The translations under genes and the position numbers were made by a program. From a virus, in IMG/VR virus record IMGVR_UViG_3300020048_000012: DNA of 64,000 bases; one strand, given 5' to 3'. Of the stretch, positions 43,005 through 58,982 are shown one piece after another. The notes under the pieces were generated by a model. The model did not search any database. It saw only the letters and a program-made list of their open reading frames with translations, and was not told where the DNA came from. Position 1 is the stretch's first letter. Each line of letters opens with the position of its first letter.

Positions 43005-43685
43005 ATGTCACCAATATACTTATACATAAAAACTCACAATATCACTGGATTGAAATATTTTGGCAAAACAATTGCAAAAGATCCATATGCATACAAAGGA
43101 TCTGGAACTCATTGGGTTGCACATATTAGAAAACATGGATATGATGTCACGACGACAATTTATGGAACTTATTACGATAAATTGGAATGTCAAATTGCTG
43201 CTATGGCTTTCAGCGAAGAAAATAACATAGTAGAATCTAACGAATGGGCTAATCTTAGAATTGAAAATCTAGATGGTGGCGACACTAGTCATACAGATGG
43301 TTATAAAAAATCTTTACACAAAATAGGCGAGGCCGCTAGAAAACACAAATGGTGGAATGATGGGGTGACACAGGCGTTTTCAGAAATGCCTCCAAGCGAA
43401 AATCATGTACGTGGTAGATTACATTTCAATAATTCTGGAGCAAAGTTGGGAGGTGCTGCACAAAAAGGGAAAATATGGGTTAATAATTCTATCGAGGAAT
43501 GCATGGTTTATACAGACGCAATCCCAAATGGATTTACTAAGGGTCGGTTAAAATCTAAATTAAAATCATTAACGCCAAGGCATTTTAATAAAGGAACTAA
43601 ATGGTGGAATAACGGAGAAATAGAATTAATGACTAATTCTCCATTAGAGTCGTTTGTTCCCGGTCGTTTAAAACGAATCAAATGA
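43005..43685 (+). mobile_element. Free-standing GIY-YIG-like homing endonuclease, opposite orientation
   Basis: IYLYIKTHNITGLKYFGKT..KDP..YKGSG.HW; KWWNDG/IWVNN/KWWNNG repeats; TATAAATA at 42974-42981. Confidence 0.8.
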
Positions 43686-44577
43686 TGCTATGATTATAAT
43701 TATTTGAAACCAATTCATTAGTTGGCATATCATCTAAGTCTATCACCAGACATTTGAAATTCGCATAATCTGGTCGCTCATTTGGATATCCGCGTGGATT
43801 GCACGCGACTAATGTATCACCCATATAATACCAATGTTGATGATGCACGTGCCCGCATGTCCATAATTTGATCTGAGGTCGATCAAGGATGAATTCGCTT
43901 AAATCAGAATAGTACGCCCCATTCATTAAATACTCGTTTTTGTAATCTTCACTGATACTCAATACGCTTGGTGCATGGTGCCCAACGATCACAAACTTTT
44001 CATCATGTTTTTCAGACACAACTTGTTTGATATAGCCCAGACTCTTACGATGACGATGAACTGCGTGAGCTGCGCGAAGTTTAGTATAACCATGCTCGTC
44101 ATTGCGAATAATACGAAAGTCATTCATCATGTCGCCGACTGCATGCAGCGTCAACGGGTCGACCTTATTCATATCAGTCCAGAGCGTAGCTCCAACAAAC
44201 GTAACGTCATCTAACTTAAAGATTTCATCTTCAAGAAAATGAATGTTGTCATGACGAGCATATAATTCGCGTAGAATAGACAATGACTTAACCCACTTAC
44301 CATTATAGAATTCATGGTTGCCCGCGATAACGATCACGTGTGGAAATTCTGAACTAATTTGTTTCAAAAAGTCCATGTACTTAATCGCATTACGAGTGCG
44401 ATGCGACATCTTCTCCACTGCGCCTGATGCATACGGATTGAAGTCGGGAATCTCACGATCAAAATCATCGGCAATAAGAATATCGCCCGACAAAACCAGA
44501 ACGTCAGCCTCTTCAGTATTTTTAAGTTCTATCATCCCAAATTCAAGATGTAGGTCACTGCACACTGCGATTTTCAT
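43678..44577 (-). CDS. Calcineurin-like metallophosphoesterase
   Basis: SDLHLEF, LSGDI, IAGNHEFY, VGHHAP, GHVH, CNPRGY. Confidence 0.92.
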   Translation of the reverse strand: MKIAVCSDLHLEFGMIELKNTEEADVLVLSGDILIADDFDREIPDFNPYASGAVEKMSHRTRNAIKYMDFLKQISSEFPHVIVIAGNHEFYNGKWVKSLSILRELYARHDNIHFLEDEIFKLDDVTFVGATLWTDMNKVDPLTLHAVGDMMNDFRIIRNDEHGYTKLRAAHAVHRHRKSLGYIKQVVSEKHDEKFVIVGHHAPSVLSISEDYKNEYLMNGAYYSDLSEFILDRPQIKLWTCGHVHHQHWYYMGDTLVACNPRGYPNERPDYANFKCLVIDLDDMPTNELVSNNYNHSII

Positions 44578-54325: not shown

Positions 54326-54955
54326 TTATAAGTAATGACAGAATGTCGTCATGATATATTTAGGGTCGCTGATTGGTTTAAATCCACAATGTAGATATTG
54401 CCAAGTGCTCGGAAATATTAGCATACTTCCTTTCTTGGGTTGACAACTAAATCCCAATTTAGGAAATGCTGCGTCACCACCTTCAGGGATATCATTCAAA
54501 TAATATAATGCAGTGATGAATCGACGGGCCGATGCGTAATCACCGACATCAGTATGTAACCCAAATCCATCTTTGCCATTATTCATTGTCCGATTAATTC
54601 TAAAATGCTCAAATCCGTATTTTTCTGGAATTCTAGTTGGAGCATCCTGTGCATCAATATCAATCATATATTCGCCAATAGCTCGAACAGTGTAGTTTAC
54701 TACATGCGTGTGTAGATGTTTGAATAAAGGAATGTGTTGATTATCTGTGACATTCAATTGATCAAATCTAAAGTGGCCTTCGCCTTGCGCGTGAGTAACA
54801 TGTAATTGAGAATTTTTATCATACAATTGCAATAACTCATTGCATAAAGACGAAGGCAAAACATTTGGTTTATACGTGATATAGAACGCCAAATGCGTCT
54901 TATCAGGACGCCAAGTCATATAATCTTCTGGTGCAAGACGAATAATATCATTCAT
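54326..54955 (-). CDS. 2OG-Fe(II) oxygenase (prolyl-hydroxylase-like)
   Basis: FGLHTD, RFITALYYLND..EGG, PKKGSMLIFP..W.YLHCG, KYI. Confidence 0.88.
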   Translation of the reverse strand: MNDIIRLAPEDYMTWRPDKTHLAFYITYKPNVLPSSLCNELLQLYDKNSQLHVTHAQGEGHFRFDQLNVTDNQHIPLFKHLHTHVVNYTVRAIGEYMIDIDAQDAPTRIPEKYGFEHFRINRTMNNGKDGFGLHTDVGDYASARRFITALYYLNDIPEGGDAAFPKLGFSCQPKKGSMLIFPSTWQYLHCGFKPISDPKYIMTTFCHYL

Positions 54956-55638
54956 AATTTTAAATTCCTAGAATACGCTTCAATTTCGACTAATAAATCA
55001 TCTCTACAAATGTCTACATTTATAATTTTACCACTAATATTGTATTTTTGTAAAATATGTTTTACAACTTGATTTGATTCTTTATTCTTTACGTAGATAG
55101 TATACACTAAGTCTGAATTAGTTACACCCGATGTTGTCATCAATCTTCCGATATTATTAAGCGTTAAATCTATTTGACCAAACAAATCATCTTTATACCA
55201 TGTTTCACTGCCACGAATACTGGCTGTGCCAGATATCAATAAGTTATTGTCGTGTATTGCTGCTCGCGAAAATAATGGAACGCCATACACAGATGGATAA
55301 TTGAATGGATCTATTTGATTTGTATTGCTAAAGAAACGAGCTGGCGTTCGTGCTCGCGTATAGATGAGAGTGTATGTATCATCGAATGATCCTAAAGCAC
55401 ATGCAGTAGGATATTCCGTTACATTAAATTTAGTGAATATCTTTTTGCGAACTACATTGAATTTTGAGTATCGCTGAACGCCATCTTCATAACGAAGAAT
55501 ATCGGGTATAAAGTTTCTTATGTTGATAATGTATGGATATTCAGAATTGGGCGTAAACATTGCATTATACGCCCGTTCAATTTGTGATTCTATATCATAT
55601 CCACTTATTTTGATTTTAGTAGTTTGATAATTTTTCAT
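54952..55638 (-). CDS. FkbO/Hyg5/XanB2-like chorismatase (RidA/YjgF-fold)
   Basis: YPYIINIRNFIP, QRYSKFN..R, PTACALG, NQIDPFNYP..YG.PLFSRA, LISGTASIRG, DICRDDLLVEIEA; start moved to MKNYQ. Confidence 0.72.
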   Translation of the reverse strand: MKNYQTTKIKISGYDIESQIERAYNAMFTPNSEYPYIINIRNFIPDILRYEDGVQRYSKFNVVRKKIFTKFNVTEYPTACALGSFDDTYTLIYTRARTPARFFSNTNQIDPFNYPSVYGVPLFSRAAIHDNNLLISGTASIRGSETWYKDDLFGQIDLTLNNIGRLMTTSGVTNSDLVYTIYVKNKESNQVVKHILQKYNISGKIINVDICRDDLLVEIEAYSRNLKL

Positions 55639-55648
55639 AATATTAAAA

Positions 55649-55724
55649 TGGTGGTCGGAAGAACACTCGAAGTTCCACATTTATCCGTATGAAGGATACT
55701 CTCTGCCTCTTAAGATACCCGACC
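55649..55724 (-). tRNA. tRNA-Met/Ile2 (CAT)
   Basis: Cloverleaf; TATCC-TTCATAC-GGATA; CCA. Confidence 0.8.
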
Positions 55725-56049: not shown

Positions 56050-56145
56050 GAACTCATTGTAGGCAGGGGTCGAACCTGCACGAGGCGTCTATTTCCTCCG
56101 ACCCTATGAGAGGTCTATGACTACCAATTCCATCACTACGAGTTC
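56050..56145 (-). ncRNA. tRNA-like RNA with bulged acceptor stem, long variable arm and no CCA
   Basis: GGAATTGGTAG D-loop, GCAGG-TTCGACC-CCTGC T-arm, irregular TCTCATAG anticodon loop. Confidence 0.55.
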
Positions 56146-56920: not shown

Positions 56921-57124
56921 TTACGCGTAAGAATAAAACGTCTTAGACTTACCTTTAGAATTAGTTACAACGCTTGTGTTAATCGCGTATCCATGTTCAC
57001 GGATATCGCTAATGCGTGCGCGGACAGCATTTGGCGTAGTCTTAAGGCGTGATGCAAGTTGTGCGACGGTTTGTGTTTTGCCTTCAAGCACGAGAGTTTC
57101 AAAGATTTTGCGTTTAATCGACAT
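56921..57124 (-). CDS. Small winged-HTH DNA-binding protein
   Basis: TVAQLASRLKTTPNAVRARISDIREHGYAI; GAGGA RBS. Confidence 0.75.
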   Translation of the reverse strand: MSIKRKIFETLVLEGKTQTVAQLASRLKTTPNAVRARISDIREHGYAINTSVVTNSKGKSKTFYSYA

Positions 57125-57224: not shown

Positions 57225-57299
57225 TGGTGCCGCTCCTAGGTTTCGATCCTAGTACCAAGGAATTATGAGTTCCCTGCTCTCCCATTGAGCTAGAGCGGC
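57225..57299 (-). tRNA. tRNA-Met/Ile2 (CAT)
   Basis: GGGAA-CTCATAA-TTCCT; CCA. Confidence 0.9.
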
Positions 57300-57307
57300 A
57301 AATAAAA

Positions 57308-57624
57308 TTAACACTTCCACTGGACCAGCCTGGCGTACAGACTGCGGTGGCTCCACCGACAGAAACGTTTATCAGGATTTGAAGAACTTTGATTGCCTCG
57401 AGTCTTTCGACTTGTCAATGGCTAATCGTTGTGCTTTCATGATTTAAACGTTTATCTTTGACACTTAAACTTTGAACTTTAATATTTAAACGTTGAGGTT
57501 CCATATTGGTAGGCATTTCTGCCCGATAGTTCGTTGATTTAAAATATCAATGATTTGTCCATATTTTGATACTGAGGACAATAAGTAAGGCCGTTCTAAT
57601 CTGTTCGGTCCAGCAAAGTGTTAA
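57308..57624 (-). ncRNA. ~315-nt stem-closed RNA with 7-nt repeat core, directly after coiled-coil gene
   Basis: Terminal helix TTAACACTT..CTGGACC/GGTCCAG..AAGTGTTAA; eight heptamers at 57495-57440. Confidence 0.6.
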
Positions 57625-57625
57625 C

Positions 57626-58264
57626 TTAAAAACTGATAGTTGTCTTGGCGTTAACCTCAGACAAAGTGAAATCCAATTCAGTATCGACAAGAGAAATTTC
57701 TTCCTCAAGTGCAGCAATCTTCTCAACAATGTTGACTGGGTCAATCAATGCAGCTTCCTTCATAGCCTTCTGAGGCTTAGCAATTAGGTCATATGAACCT
57801 GCGTCCACCTTGGATTTATCGCTACCATAAATGGTCTTCAAGTTAGAGTCAATGTCTTGCTCCAACTTGGCGTTCAATTGAGACACAAGGCCTTGAGCAC
57901 GAGTTTGTTGAAGACGCATAACATTCAACAGATTACGCTTGCTGTCGATCGAACGCTTCATTTCGATAGCTTCTGCGACAGTCACTTCAATCGAACCAAT
58001 CTTCACTGTCGTGACAGCATTGGACTTAACGATCGCAGCTTTGATTGCGGCACGTTCCTTAAACAGCGAATTCACAGTATCAAAAGAACTCTGGATCTTA
58101 GCCTTAGCCTGATCGACGGACAGTCCTGCCGTATCATTGACCTTCATCTGAGCGTCTTTACCAACACTGACAGTCACAAACATACCGGCACTCGTCGCAC
58201 GAGCAATACGGTCATCGAGACGCTTCAATTCAGCCAAAGCACGAGTTACAGACATTGTGTTCAT
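57626..58264 (-). CDS. Coiled-coil protein (DIP1984-like family)
   Basis: MSVTRALAELKRLDDRI, VTVAEAIEMK, LIDP..I..KI..LEEEI...D..LSEVNAKTTI; start set by AAGGA RBS. Confidence 0.75.
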   Translation of the reverse strand: MNTMSVTRALAELKRLDDRIARATSAGMFVTVSVGKDAQMKVNDTAGLSVDQAKAKIQSSFDTVNSLFKERAAIKAAIVKSNAVTTVKIGSIEVTVAEAIEMKRSIDSKRNLLNVMRLQQTRAQGLVSQLNAKLEQDIDSNLKTIYGSDKSKVDAGSYDLIAKPQKAMKEAALIDPVNIVEKIAALEEEISLVDTELDFTLSEVNAKTTISF

Positions 58265-58296: not shown

Positions 58297-58375
58297 TGGT
58301 ACCCAAGAGGAGACTCGAACTCCTAACTTTTCTTCGTTCTTAGCGAAGCGCCTTTTCCAATTTGGCAACAAGGGC
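58297..58375 (-). tRNA. tRNA-Leu (AAG)-like, two acceptor mismatches
   Basis: CTTCG-CTAAGAA-CGAAG; Leu-type D loop; CCA. Confidence 0.55.
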
Positions 58376-58907: not shown

Positions 58908-58982
58908 TGGTGCTCCCATAAGGACTTGCGCCCTACTCTGAGGCTTACAAAACCCCTGCATCGCTATCTATGCTTTGAGAGC
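58908..58982 (-). tRNA. tRNA-Thr (TGT)
   Basis: GGGGT-TTTGTAA-GCCTC; T-loop CGCAAGT; CCA. Confidence 0.78.

Follow-up and report, generated by a model that had tools for sequence, protein, structure and literature searches.

A gene and an RNA in a phage tRNA array

The window analysed here is a stretch of 64,000 nucleotides (nt) of viral DNA (IMG/VR record IMGVR_UViG_3300020048_000012), the last 12 kb of which form a phage-type transfer RNA (tRNA) array with 31 tRNA genes, all called by ARAGORN on the minus strand. Within this array, a gene for a 212-amino-acid (aa) protein, whose TAA stop codon lies at 57628-57626 on the minus strand, is followed at once by a large structured RNA, and this gene–RNA pair is the subject of the present report. 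The 326 nt that separate the gene from the next tRNA gene, a tRNA-Met beginning 8 nt past the closing stem of the RNA, hold no open reading frame (ORF) of at least 40 aa wholly inside them on the gene's strand; one 65-aa ORF (57547-57744) enters the stretch from within the gene. An earlier note on this DNA had marked a stem-closed region (57624-57607 with 57326-57308) around eight heptamers at 57495-57440, flanked by hairpins. Both sets of coordinates proved exact, the hairpins are present, and the stem covaries in 60 sequences. The RNA of about 315 nt with a periodic core that it described is likewise real, but its length is 317 nt, and what is conserved in the repeat is an AA at every seventh nucleotide with U at unit positions 6-7, not AAAG as such. 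The tRNA-array context is absent from that note.

The pair is common. Of 50,697 phage records, 743 contain a homologue of equal length, among them those of T5 (where the gene is ORF080, at 43426-44064 of AY587007.1), BF23, Pseudomonas Otagovirus, Vibrio Thalassavirus, Bacillus Bcp1, Klebsiella and Salmonella myoviruses, Erwinia jumbo phages and Lactococcus phages, and an exhaustive profile-free protein search returned 2034 cluster representatives at E<=1e-3. Behind the gene, all phage records inspected have 360-480 nt without a coding sequence, in which the two ends are complementary and YAAAG units follow one another in the middle. Because it is present in the model phage T5, the pair is testable at once.

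Gene and RNA are linked strictly and one to one. We sampled 80 loci from IMG/VR and 80 from GTDB genomes, with 166 loci in all entering the clustering of ORFs, and the gene was the sole protein found in 166 of 166; this clustering revealed no third conserved gene. An iterated nucleotide profile detected the 3' domain of the RNA behind the gene in 117 of 126 unique downstream regions, which bears out the earlier claim that a non-coding heptamer RNA is coupled to the gene upstream, and a covariance model finds most of the remaining nine. The covariance model of the 3' domain, R1, has a single match in the whole window (57325-57406, minus strand) and matches held-out loci at the expected place and strand (E 1e-5 in Bcp1). 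It also matches loci L090 and L079, where an ORF or repeats part the gene from the RNA, and gives weak matches, correctly placed and oriented, in T5, Bf23, AG74, Pyxpy01 and COT4. The T5 RNA (AY587007.1, complement of 43064-43414) is 351 nt long with a perfect 17-bp closing stem, and ends just ahead of the annotated promoter T5P23. The gene and the RNA are each present exactly once in two complete phage genomes of 198 and 263 kb and in three bacterial genomes of 3.7-11.4 Mb; in all five, the RNA comes after the gene at a distance of 170-350 nt, with strand in common. In Pyxpy01, COT4, Bcp1 and AG74, terminators are found past the RNA rather than past the gene.

A covarying pseudoknotted RNA with a 7-nt periodic tract

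The element behind the gene is an RNA of the sense strand whose pseudoknotted fold covaries and which carries a conserved, single-stranded tract with a period of 7 nt. In the window it folds at -88.8 kcal/mol, against -65.0 +/- 4.6 kcal/mol for dinucleotide shuffles (z = -5.2; none of 100 shuffles as low). Its closing stem, P1, has 9 bp and 6 bp about a small internal loop, and its long-range helix PK1 has 7 bp (57598-57604 with 57337-57343); the junction G between them pairs with the U of a GCUG, a G.U combination seen in 59 of 60 sequences. Relatives of the RNA measure 229-472 nt. In nearly all unique regions the closing stem, of 8-24 bp (typically 13-20), is followed by GAAAAY and has GGCUG before it.

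We aligned 60 non-redundant RNAs with MAFFT (alignment A2) and counted base pairs across the family. P1 (columns 7-19 with 670-682) is paired in 97.9% of cells, with changes on both sides in 11 of 13 pairs; the corresponding values are 98.7% and 3 of 5 for P3a (columns 609-614 with 664-668), and 96.7% and 3 of 3 for P3b (columns 621-623 with 661-663). The core of PK1, which joins the segment right after P1 to the segment 5'-adjacent to the 3' strand of P3b, is paired in 94.4% of cells (both-sided changes in 2 of 3 pairs), and the phage-type helix PK2, between the next 5' segment and the loop of a 3'-domain hairpin, in 87.6% (6 of 6). Since PK1, PK2 and the P4 hairpin fall in differing MAFFT columns in phage-type and cyanobacterial rows, they were counted per subfamily. 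An ungapped, anchor-based register paired poorly for P1 and PK1, as subfamilies differ by one base at the junction, and column-based counts were used instead. The cyanobacterial PK2 is UUUAUGG with CCAUAAA, with variants such as UUUGUGG/CCACAAA.

Over the whole structure, 94.5% of cells are paired in the 60 RNAs against 70.8% when shuffled, and the covariation score is 0.638 against 0.230 for shuffled alignments and at most 0.149 with slid partners; none of 500 shuffles scored as high. The crossing of PK1 and PK2 by P3 makes the core a pseudoknot. Two P1 positions hold a conserved G.U pair, in 59 and 48 of the 60 sequences, which on the opposite strand would be C.A mismatches; the fold therefore belongs to the sense RNA and not to the DNA.

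The periodic tract is as distinctive as the core. The downstream regions of 51 unique relatives have about 9-10 copies of AAAG each, where shuffled sequence has about 3, and the spacing between copies is a multiple of 7 in half of the cases, compared with 17% after shuffling. In A2 the units keep the same register from one member to the next, whether phage or cyanobacterial, and include A columns that never vary; their consensus is YAAAGYU (AA at unit positions 2-3, then A or G followed by G, and U at positions 6-7). A column-pair scan of A2 found no conserved helix in which the tract takes part. Past the closing stem, a U-rich run (UUUUAUUU, 57300-57307 in the window) is found at the same place in many relatives, and stem and run together could serve as a long-range terminator or as a 3'-end protector.

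The RNA as a whole falls within no described family; what is catalogued is limited to the first 86 nt in some relatives. The earlier note, which could name no family, was right as to the whole and missed the piece. Rfam scans of the window and of six phage loci gave nothing within the RNA. RAGATH-27 (RF03100), an orphan candidate small RNA of 86 positions, matches the first ~86 nt of phage-type relatives that have the same gene ahead: it exceeds its gathering threshold of 76.1 bits in 5 of 19 loci (L027 with 97.1 bits, L015, L021, L089 and L061) and falls below it in ten more. The RF03100 consensus runs from the 5' strand of P1 through GAAAAC and the PK strands, with one 7-bp hairpin annotated, so that the model is a fragment of the RNA described here; it treats the P1 strand, GAAAAC and the PK strands as unpaired and is without the heptamer tract, the 3' domain and the closing stem. 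Window positions 57280-57640 (361 nt) give no RF03100 row even at E<=10, and T5, Bcp1 and the cyanobacterial copies give no match. The window RNA is homologous to the RF03100-matching RNAs, with the same position behind orthologous genes and with P1, PK1, P3a and P3b in common, and R1 matches RF03100-positive and RF03100-negative RNAs alike. Our literature search found no paper that names RAGATH-27, nor any description of the pair in the literature on T5 stable RNAs, DIP1984/DUF6847, tRNA-array RNAs and RAGATH-27.

Table 1. Features of the gene–RNA locus in the window
Feature	Position	Strand	Remark
Whole structured RNA, 317 nt, first to last base of closing stem	57308..57624	-	
P1 closing stem, 5' strand (UUAACACUUUGCUGGACC)	57607..57624	-	covarying in A2
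P1 closing stem, 3' strand (GGUCCAGUGGAAGUGUUAA), then UUUUAUUU and tRNA-Met	57308..57326	-	
Junction G and 5' strand of long-range helix PK1 (ACAGAUU)	57598..57606	-	
P2 hairpin (UUGUCC...GGACAA)	57555..57581	-	in relatives a hairpin, or a tRNA-like cloverleaf in many cyanobacteria
Two variable hairpins (57534-57550, 57511-57524)	57511..57550	-	length varies among relatives
Tract of eight 7-nt units (CAACGUU UAAAUAU UAAAGUU CAAAGUU UAAGUGU CAAAGAU AAACGUU UAAAUCA)	57440..57495	-	
GAAA-loop hairpin (GCC...AGUCGAAAGACU...GGC), between tract and 3' domain	57395..57422	-	
Conserved 3' domain: CAAAUCC, P3a, P3b, P4 hairpin, PK1 3' strand, GCUG	57325..57409	-	
P3a	57373-57376 with 57329-57332	-	
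P3b	57365-57367 with 57334-57336	-	
P4 hairpin	57345-57358	-	
PK1 3' strand	57337-57343	-	
GCUG	57326-57329	-	
Gene for 212-aa all-helical protein (phrog_1491, T5 ORF080 family)	57626..58264	-	ORF
tRNA-Leu(AAG), directly upstream of gene	58297..58375	-	context
tRNA-Met(CAU), directly downstream of RNA	57225..57299	-	context

The protein and its genomic setting

The window protein belongs with phrog_1491 (E 4.6e-58), a family labelled 'tail fiber protein'. This label looks wrong, and is probably a propagated mislabel that has spread from phrog_1491 to the annotation of many phage genomes. By sequence the protein has no match in Pfam (E<=0.1), NCBIfam (E<=1) or the PDB, and the A1 alignment scan gave no match to PF20935 at E<=1. 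An AlphaFold2 model built with 77 diverse sequences (predicted local distance difference test, pLDDT, of 96) shows a bundle of long antiparallel helices and a small sheet, and two SNAxT-like motifs of conserved residues end the two halves of the protein, one each. The best structural match of this model is 3KDQ, with Z 12.0 in VIA (root-mean-square deviation 5.8 over 151 of 152 aligned residues; next entry Z 7.5) and E 1.8e-3 with probability 1.00 in Foldseek. A canonical DIP1984 protein from Phormidium (L167) matches NF038048 with E 3.5e-57 and 3KDQ with E 6.4e-39, so that 3KDQ represents the DIP1984/DUF6847 family.

Judged by its model, then, the window protein is a distant structural relative of DIP1984 (NF038048)/DUF6847 (PF20935). 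It shares the long helical-bundle fold of 3KDQ and a SNAxT...TVAEAI-like motif, but has 212 aa against ~150 aa and falls below both family cut-offs. The DIP1984 likeness given in the earlier note is right at the level of fold. PF20935 is touched weakly by 10 of the 77 relatives (best E 0.0019); a search with it of T5 and two viral genomes gave no match. A homodimer is predicted with a score of 0.57, the best of three controls reaching 0.00; the mark used is reached by 20 of 30 proteins solved as one-chain pairs and by 1 of 23 solved as single chains. Contacts agree in at least 96% between runs and the partner pLDDT is at least 86. This pass may reflect likeness to 3KDQ, because that relative was solved with four chains. 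Where the earlier note had suggested a TRAP/Hfq-like ring or filament with one heptamer bound per subunit, the prediction extends to a homodimer alone, with a long helical bundle as its fold.

Outside phages, the GTDB matches come mostly from filamentous cyanobacteria (contigs or chromosomes), with Phormidium, Calothrix, Moorena, Lyngbya and Coleofasciculus among them. These carry the pair inside long tRNA arrays, frequently beside an HNH gene and a microbial-type PARG gene, the latter (PF10021, E 3.7e-50; L093:2553-3398, plus strand) following the RNA in 19 arrays. The arrays carrying the pair are the 'L-arrays', which translational stress induces and which help cells to survive it; their description in the literature mentions embedded genes but not this gene–RNA pair (PMC8421152). 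In the Phormidium genome of locus L093, a canonical DIP1984 gene lies ~10 kb from the pair, and near it we noticed by eye an ORF for a putative RNA 2'-phosphotransferase.

All 720 tRNAs found within 1.5 kb of the 160 sampled loci are co-oriented with the gene. Of 113 unique RNAs, 22 also contain a tRNA called by ARAGORN within the RNA itself, in the stretch from PK2 to the tract; a simple hairpin occupies this position in other members. The cyanobacterial nested elements have one common body while their anticodon calls and loop lengths vary, and they look like tRNA mimics, not decoders. In an Eubacteriales contig (L101:2237-2403), two complete tRNAs (Asn and Ser) are nested between the strands of the RNA core. 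Two other orphan Rfam RNAs were seen in tRNA-rich phage neighbourhoods of the same type, RAGATH-36 at L059:428-555 (plus strand, 103 bits) and FuFi-1 at L021:1149-1321 (minus strand, 66.7 bits).

The array of the window has further features of its own, all on the minus strand where a position is given. The Asn, Ile(UAU), Ala and Pro genes are duplicated; ARAGORN calls an 88-nt tRNA with an undetermined two-base anticodon at 56055-56142, and its list misses a tRNA that Rfam finds at 58911-58982 (37 bits). At the edge of the array, two overlapping ORFs (54326-55680) make an unusual pair for a phage, a 242-aa one with an FkbO/Hyg5-like chorismatase N-domain and an L-PSP/RidA domain, whose start overlaps a tRNA-Met, and a 209-aa 2OG-Fe(II) oxygenase. 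A lone 67-aa ORF at 56921-57124, between tRNA-Cys and tRNA-Arg, has weak, sub-threshold matches to helix-turn-helix/winged-helix families.

The proposed module, its alternatives and known systems

We propose that the gene and its 317-nt RNA form one two-part module, most likely a ribonucleoprotein, and give this reading a probability of roughly 0.55. Gene and RNA would be co-transcribed within the tRNA-array transcript, and RNase P and RNase Z would cut out the flanking tRNAs and free an mRNA–RNA piece, the RNase P cut at tRNA-Met fixing the 3' end of the RNA. The two ends of the RNA pair as the long P1, with its conserved G.U pairs, in a compact core, in which the 25 nt after P1 pair with the 3' domain (PK1 and PK2) across P3a and P3b to make the pseudoknot. 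From this core projects a long loop, in which lie either a hairpin or a tRNA-like element and the single-stranded tract, 8-12 units with AA at every seventh base. A dimeric DIP1984-like protein would bind the RNA, for which the repeat units would offer the likeliest multi-site platform. The pair travels with mobile tRNA arrays in phages and cyanobacteria, beside RNA-repair-type genes. Given that company, its role is probably tied to the upkeep of tRNAs or translation during infection or translational stress, the weakest step of the proposal. As support for a ribonucleoprotein we also count the precedent of the sibling motif RAGATH-18, which lies 3' of IS607 TnpB genes and is the guide RNA partner of that protein (PMC11061315).

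Several observations weigh against this proposal. The protein has no recognised RNA-binding domain, and its sole structural relative (DIP1984/3KDQ) is without known function. The window's PK2 amounts to only about 3 bp. No tRNA lies within 1.5 kb in 37 of the 80 viral loci, nor in T5, so that the link to tRNA arrays is frequent but not obligatory. Strict synteny, moreover, would also be expected of an RNA whose sole action is in cis, on the mRNA of the gene itself.

A bolder version of the proposal, which we put forward tentatively and think somewhat doubtful, is that the pair represents an undescribed and widespread ribonucleoprotein in which DIP1984-like dimers sit on a 7-nt ruler that the pseudoknotted core holds out; it might be an accessory of mobile tRNA arrays in phages and bacteria, for example capturing, protecting or presenting tRNAs or ribosomes under infection or translational stress, and every protein of the DIP1984/DUF6847 superfamily might have a partner RNA encoded next to its gene. 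If the ribonucleoprotein reading is true, the pair would be a protein-partnered addition to the small set of large RNAs of tRNA islands (GOLLD and ROOL), the purpose of which is a standing puzzle. The pair also offers a first functional lead for DIP1984/DUF6847 proteins and for the orphan motif RAGATH-27, and connects phage tRNA clusters with the cyanobacterial tRNA arrays that aid survival of translational stress (PMC8421152).

The RNA might instead function alone, as a self-assembling large RNA like GOLLD and ROOL with the protein as a co-expressed neighbour or chaperone and no partner in fixed stoichiometry, but we consider this unlikely. The niche is indeed that of GOLLD and ROOL, with tRNAs nested in a variable linker as in GOLLD (PMC12286853). 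The core is elaborately knotted, and many units, as read from the sequences, are AANNUU, a set closed under reverse complement that could mediate RNA–RNA contacts. However, gene and RNA go one to one across phyla, the tract columns hold no conserved helices, and Rfam gives no GOLLD or ROOL match; to our knowledge, GOLLD and ROOL have no dedicated protein, which we also count against the RNA acting alone.

The RNA might also be no free-standing particle but act in cis, as a 3' element belonging to the mRNA of the gene or to the tRNA precursor. This would account for its constant place immediately 3' of the gene in the same transcript orientation, for the terminators or tRNAs that come next, and for the long stem P1 with a U-run behind it. 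Such an element could be a stabiliser, a processing site (for instance for RNase III on P1) or an autoregulatory operator. We find it improbable, since a length of 229-472 nt, two pseudoknot helices and a conserved periodic tract far exceed known 3' stabilisers, and nested tRNAs would sever the RNA from the mRNA. Further, 146-278 nt or a whole ORF can stand between gene and RNA (L093, L121, L090 and L079), so that there is no dependence on nearness to the stop codon.

The earlier note had named a toxin-antitoxin or anti-defence module as a possibility, and a repeat-bearing RNA does adjoin a small protein gene in phages here. The RNA would here neutralise the protein, or act as a decoy that soaks up a host A-rich-specific ribonuclease or RNA-binding factor, and the heptamers do resemble what we take to be A/U-rich single-stranded nuclease sites. 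Type III antitoxins consist of ~34-36-nt tandem repeats upstream of an endoribonuclease toxin. In the present pair, units of 7 nt sit in a unique fold 3' of a helical-bundle protein without a nuclease fold, so that repeat size, gene order and the all-helical protein rule against a ToxIN-like system, and the pair is found in virulent phages and chromosomal tRNA arrays. Hosts as unlike as Bacillus, enterobacteria and cyanobacteria make a single host nuclease target unlikely. The toxin-antitoxin claim thus finds no support, a type III system was rejected, and we rate this whole class of explanations, decoys included, as quite improbable. Lastly, an element acting as DNA, for example an origin whose iterons the neighbouring protein binds, for which short AT-rich direct repeats and flanking inverted repeats might speak, has hardly any chance of being right: the tolerance of G.U on one strand only at the two P1 positions (59/60 and 48/60) excludes DNA iterons, and the covarying pseudoknot helices and the strict co-orientation with gene and tRNAs argue the same way.

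Returning to the proposed ribonucleoprotein, we compared the pair with known RNA–protein systems. tmRNA-SmpB was rejected, as ARAGORN finds no transfer-messenger RNA (tmRNA) and the 'smpB' beside the Pyxpy01 copy has no Pfam match. So was the abundant long non-coding RNA beside tRNA-Met in Phage K (PMC9241854), where gp233 is unrelated to our protein and the weak R1 match lies on the opposite strand. The Ro60/Y RNA (YrlA) system is alike in that pairing of the 5' and 3' ends closes the RNA, some copies have a tRNA-like module, and RNA-repair-type genes (PARG-like, in cyanobacteria) are nearby; unlike it, the partner here is a helical bundle and no Ro60 (TROVE) protein. We know of no periodic tract in Y RNAs, and YrlA (RF02553) has no match inside the RNA, its weak rows overlapping real tRNAs outside. 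HutP with hut RNA and TRAP with the trp leader may offer a parallel for the tract, since both use short purine motifs regularly spaced in single-stranded RNA, the HutP sites being UAG every 7 nt. HutP and TRAP are, however, ring-shaped alpha/beta proteins acting on leader terminators, whereas our protein is a helical bundle, a predicted dimer rather than a ring, and its RNA folds as a large independent unit located 3' of the gene; neither HutP nor TRAP was among the fold matches.

GOLLD and ROOL, large RNAs located beside phage tRNA islands and in bacterial tRNA arrays, of which GOLLD is able to carry tRNAs in a linker (PMC12286853), share with the present RNA a large knotted fold, the tRNA-island niche and the nesting of tRNAs. 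Their Rfam models have no match in the window or in the relatives scanned, and our RNA differs from them in being half their size or less, in its 7-nt periodic tract and in its dedicated protein gene.

With respect to DIP1984 itself, the earlier note had placed AAAG tracts behind the bacterial genes. None is present at ten canonical loci (one cyanobacterium and nine Bacillota), which show neither an R1 match nor 7-nt periodicity; the statement does hold for the genes of the 212-aa relatives in cyanobacterial tRNA arrays, which such tracts follow. The canonical genes (L167 and L169-L177) are followed by 190-210 nt of their own that are conserved across phyla, start GGUAGCUAAA..AGAGGCGAGUA and end GUGAGGGYGGGNNAGGGGA; in L167 the element lies past the DIP1984 gene at 1492-1950 on the minus strand. 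This element, which has no Rfam match, may be a second undescribed partner RNA, and its conservation suggests that members of the DIP1984/DUF6847 superfamily in general have an RNA downstream of their gene.

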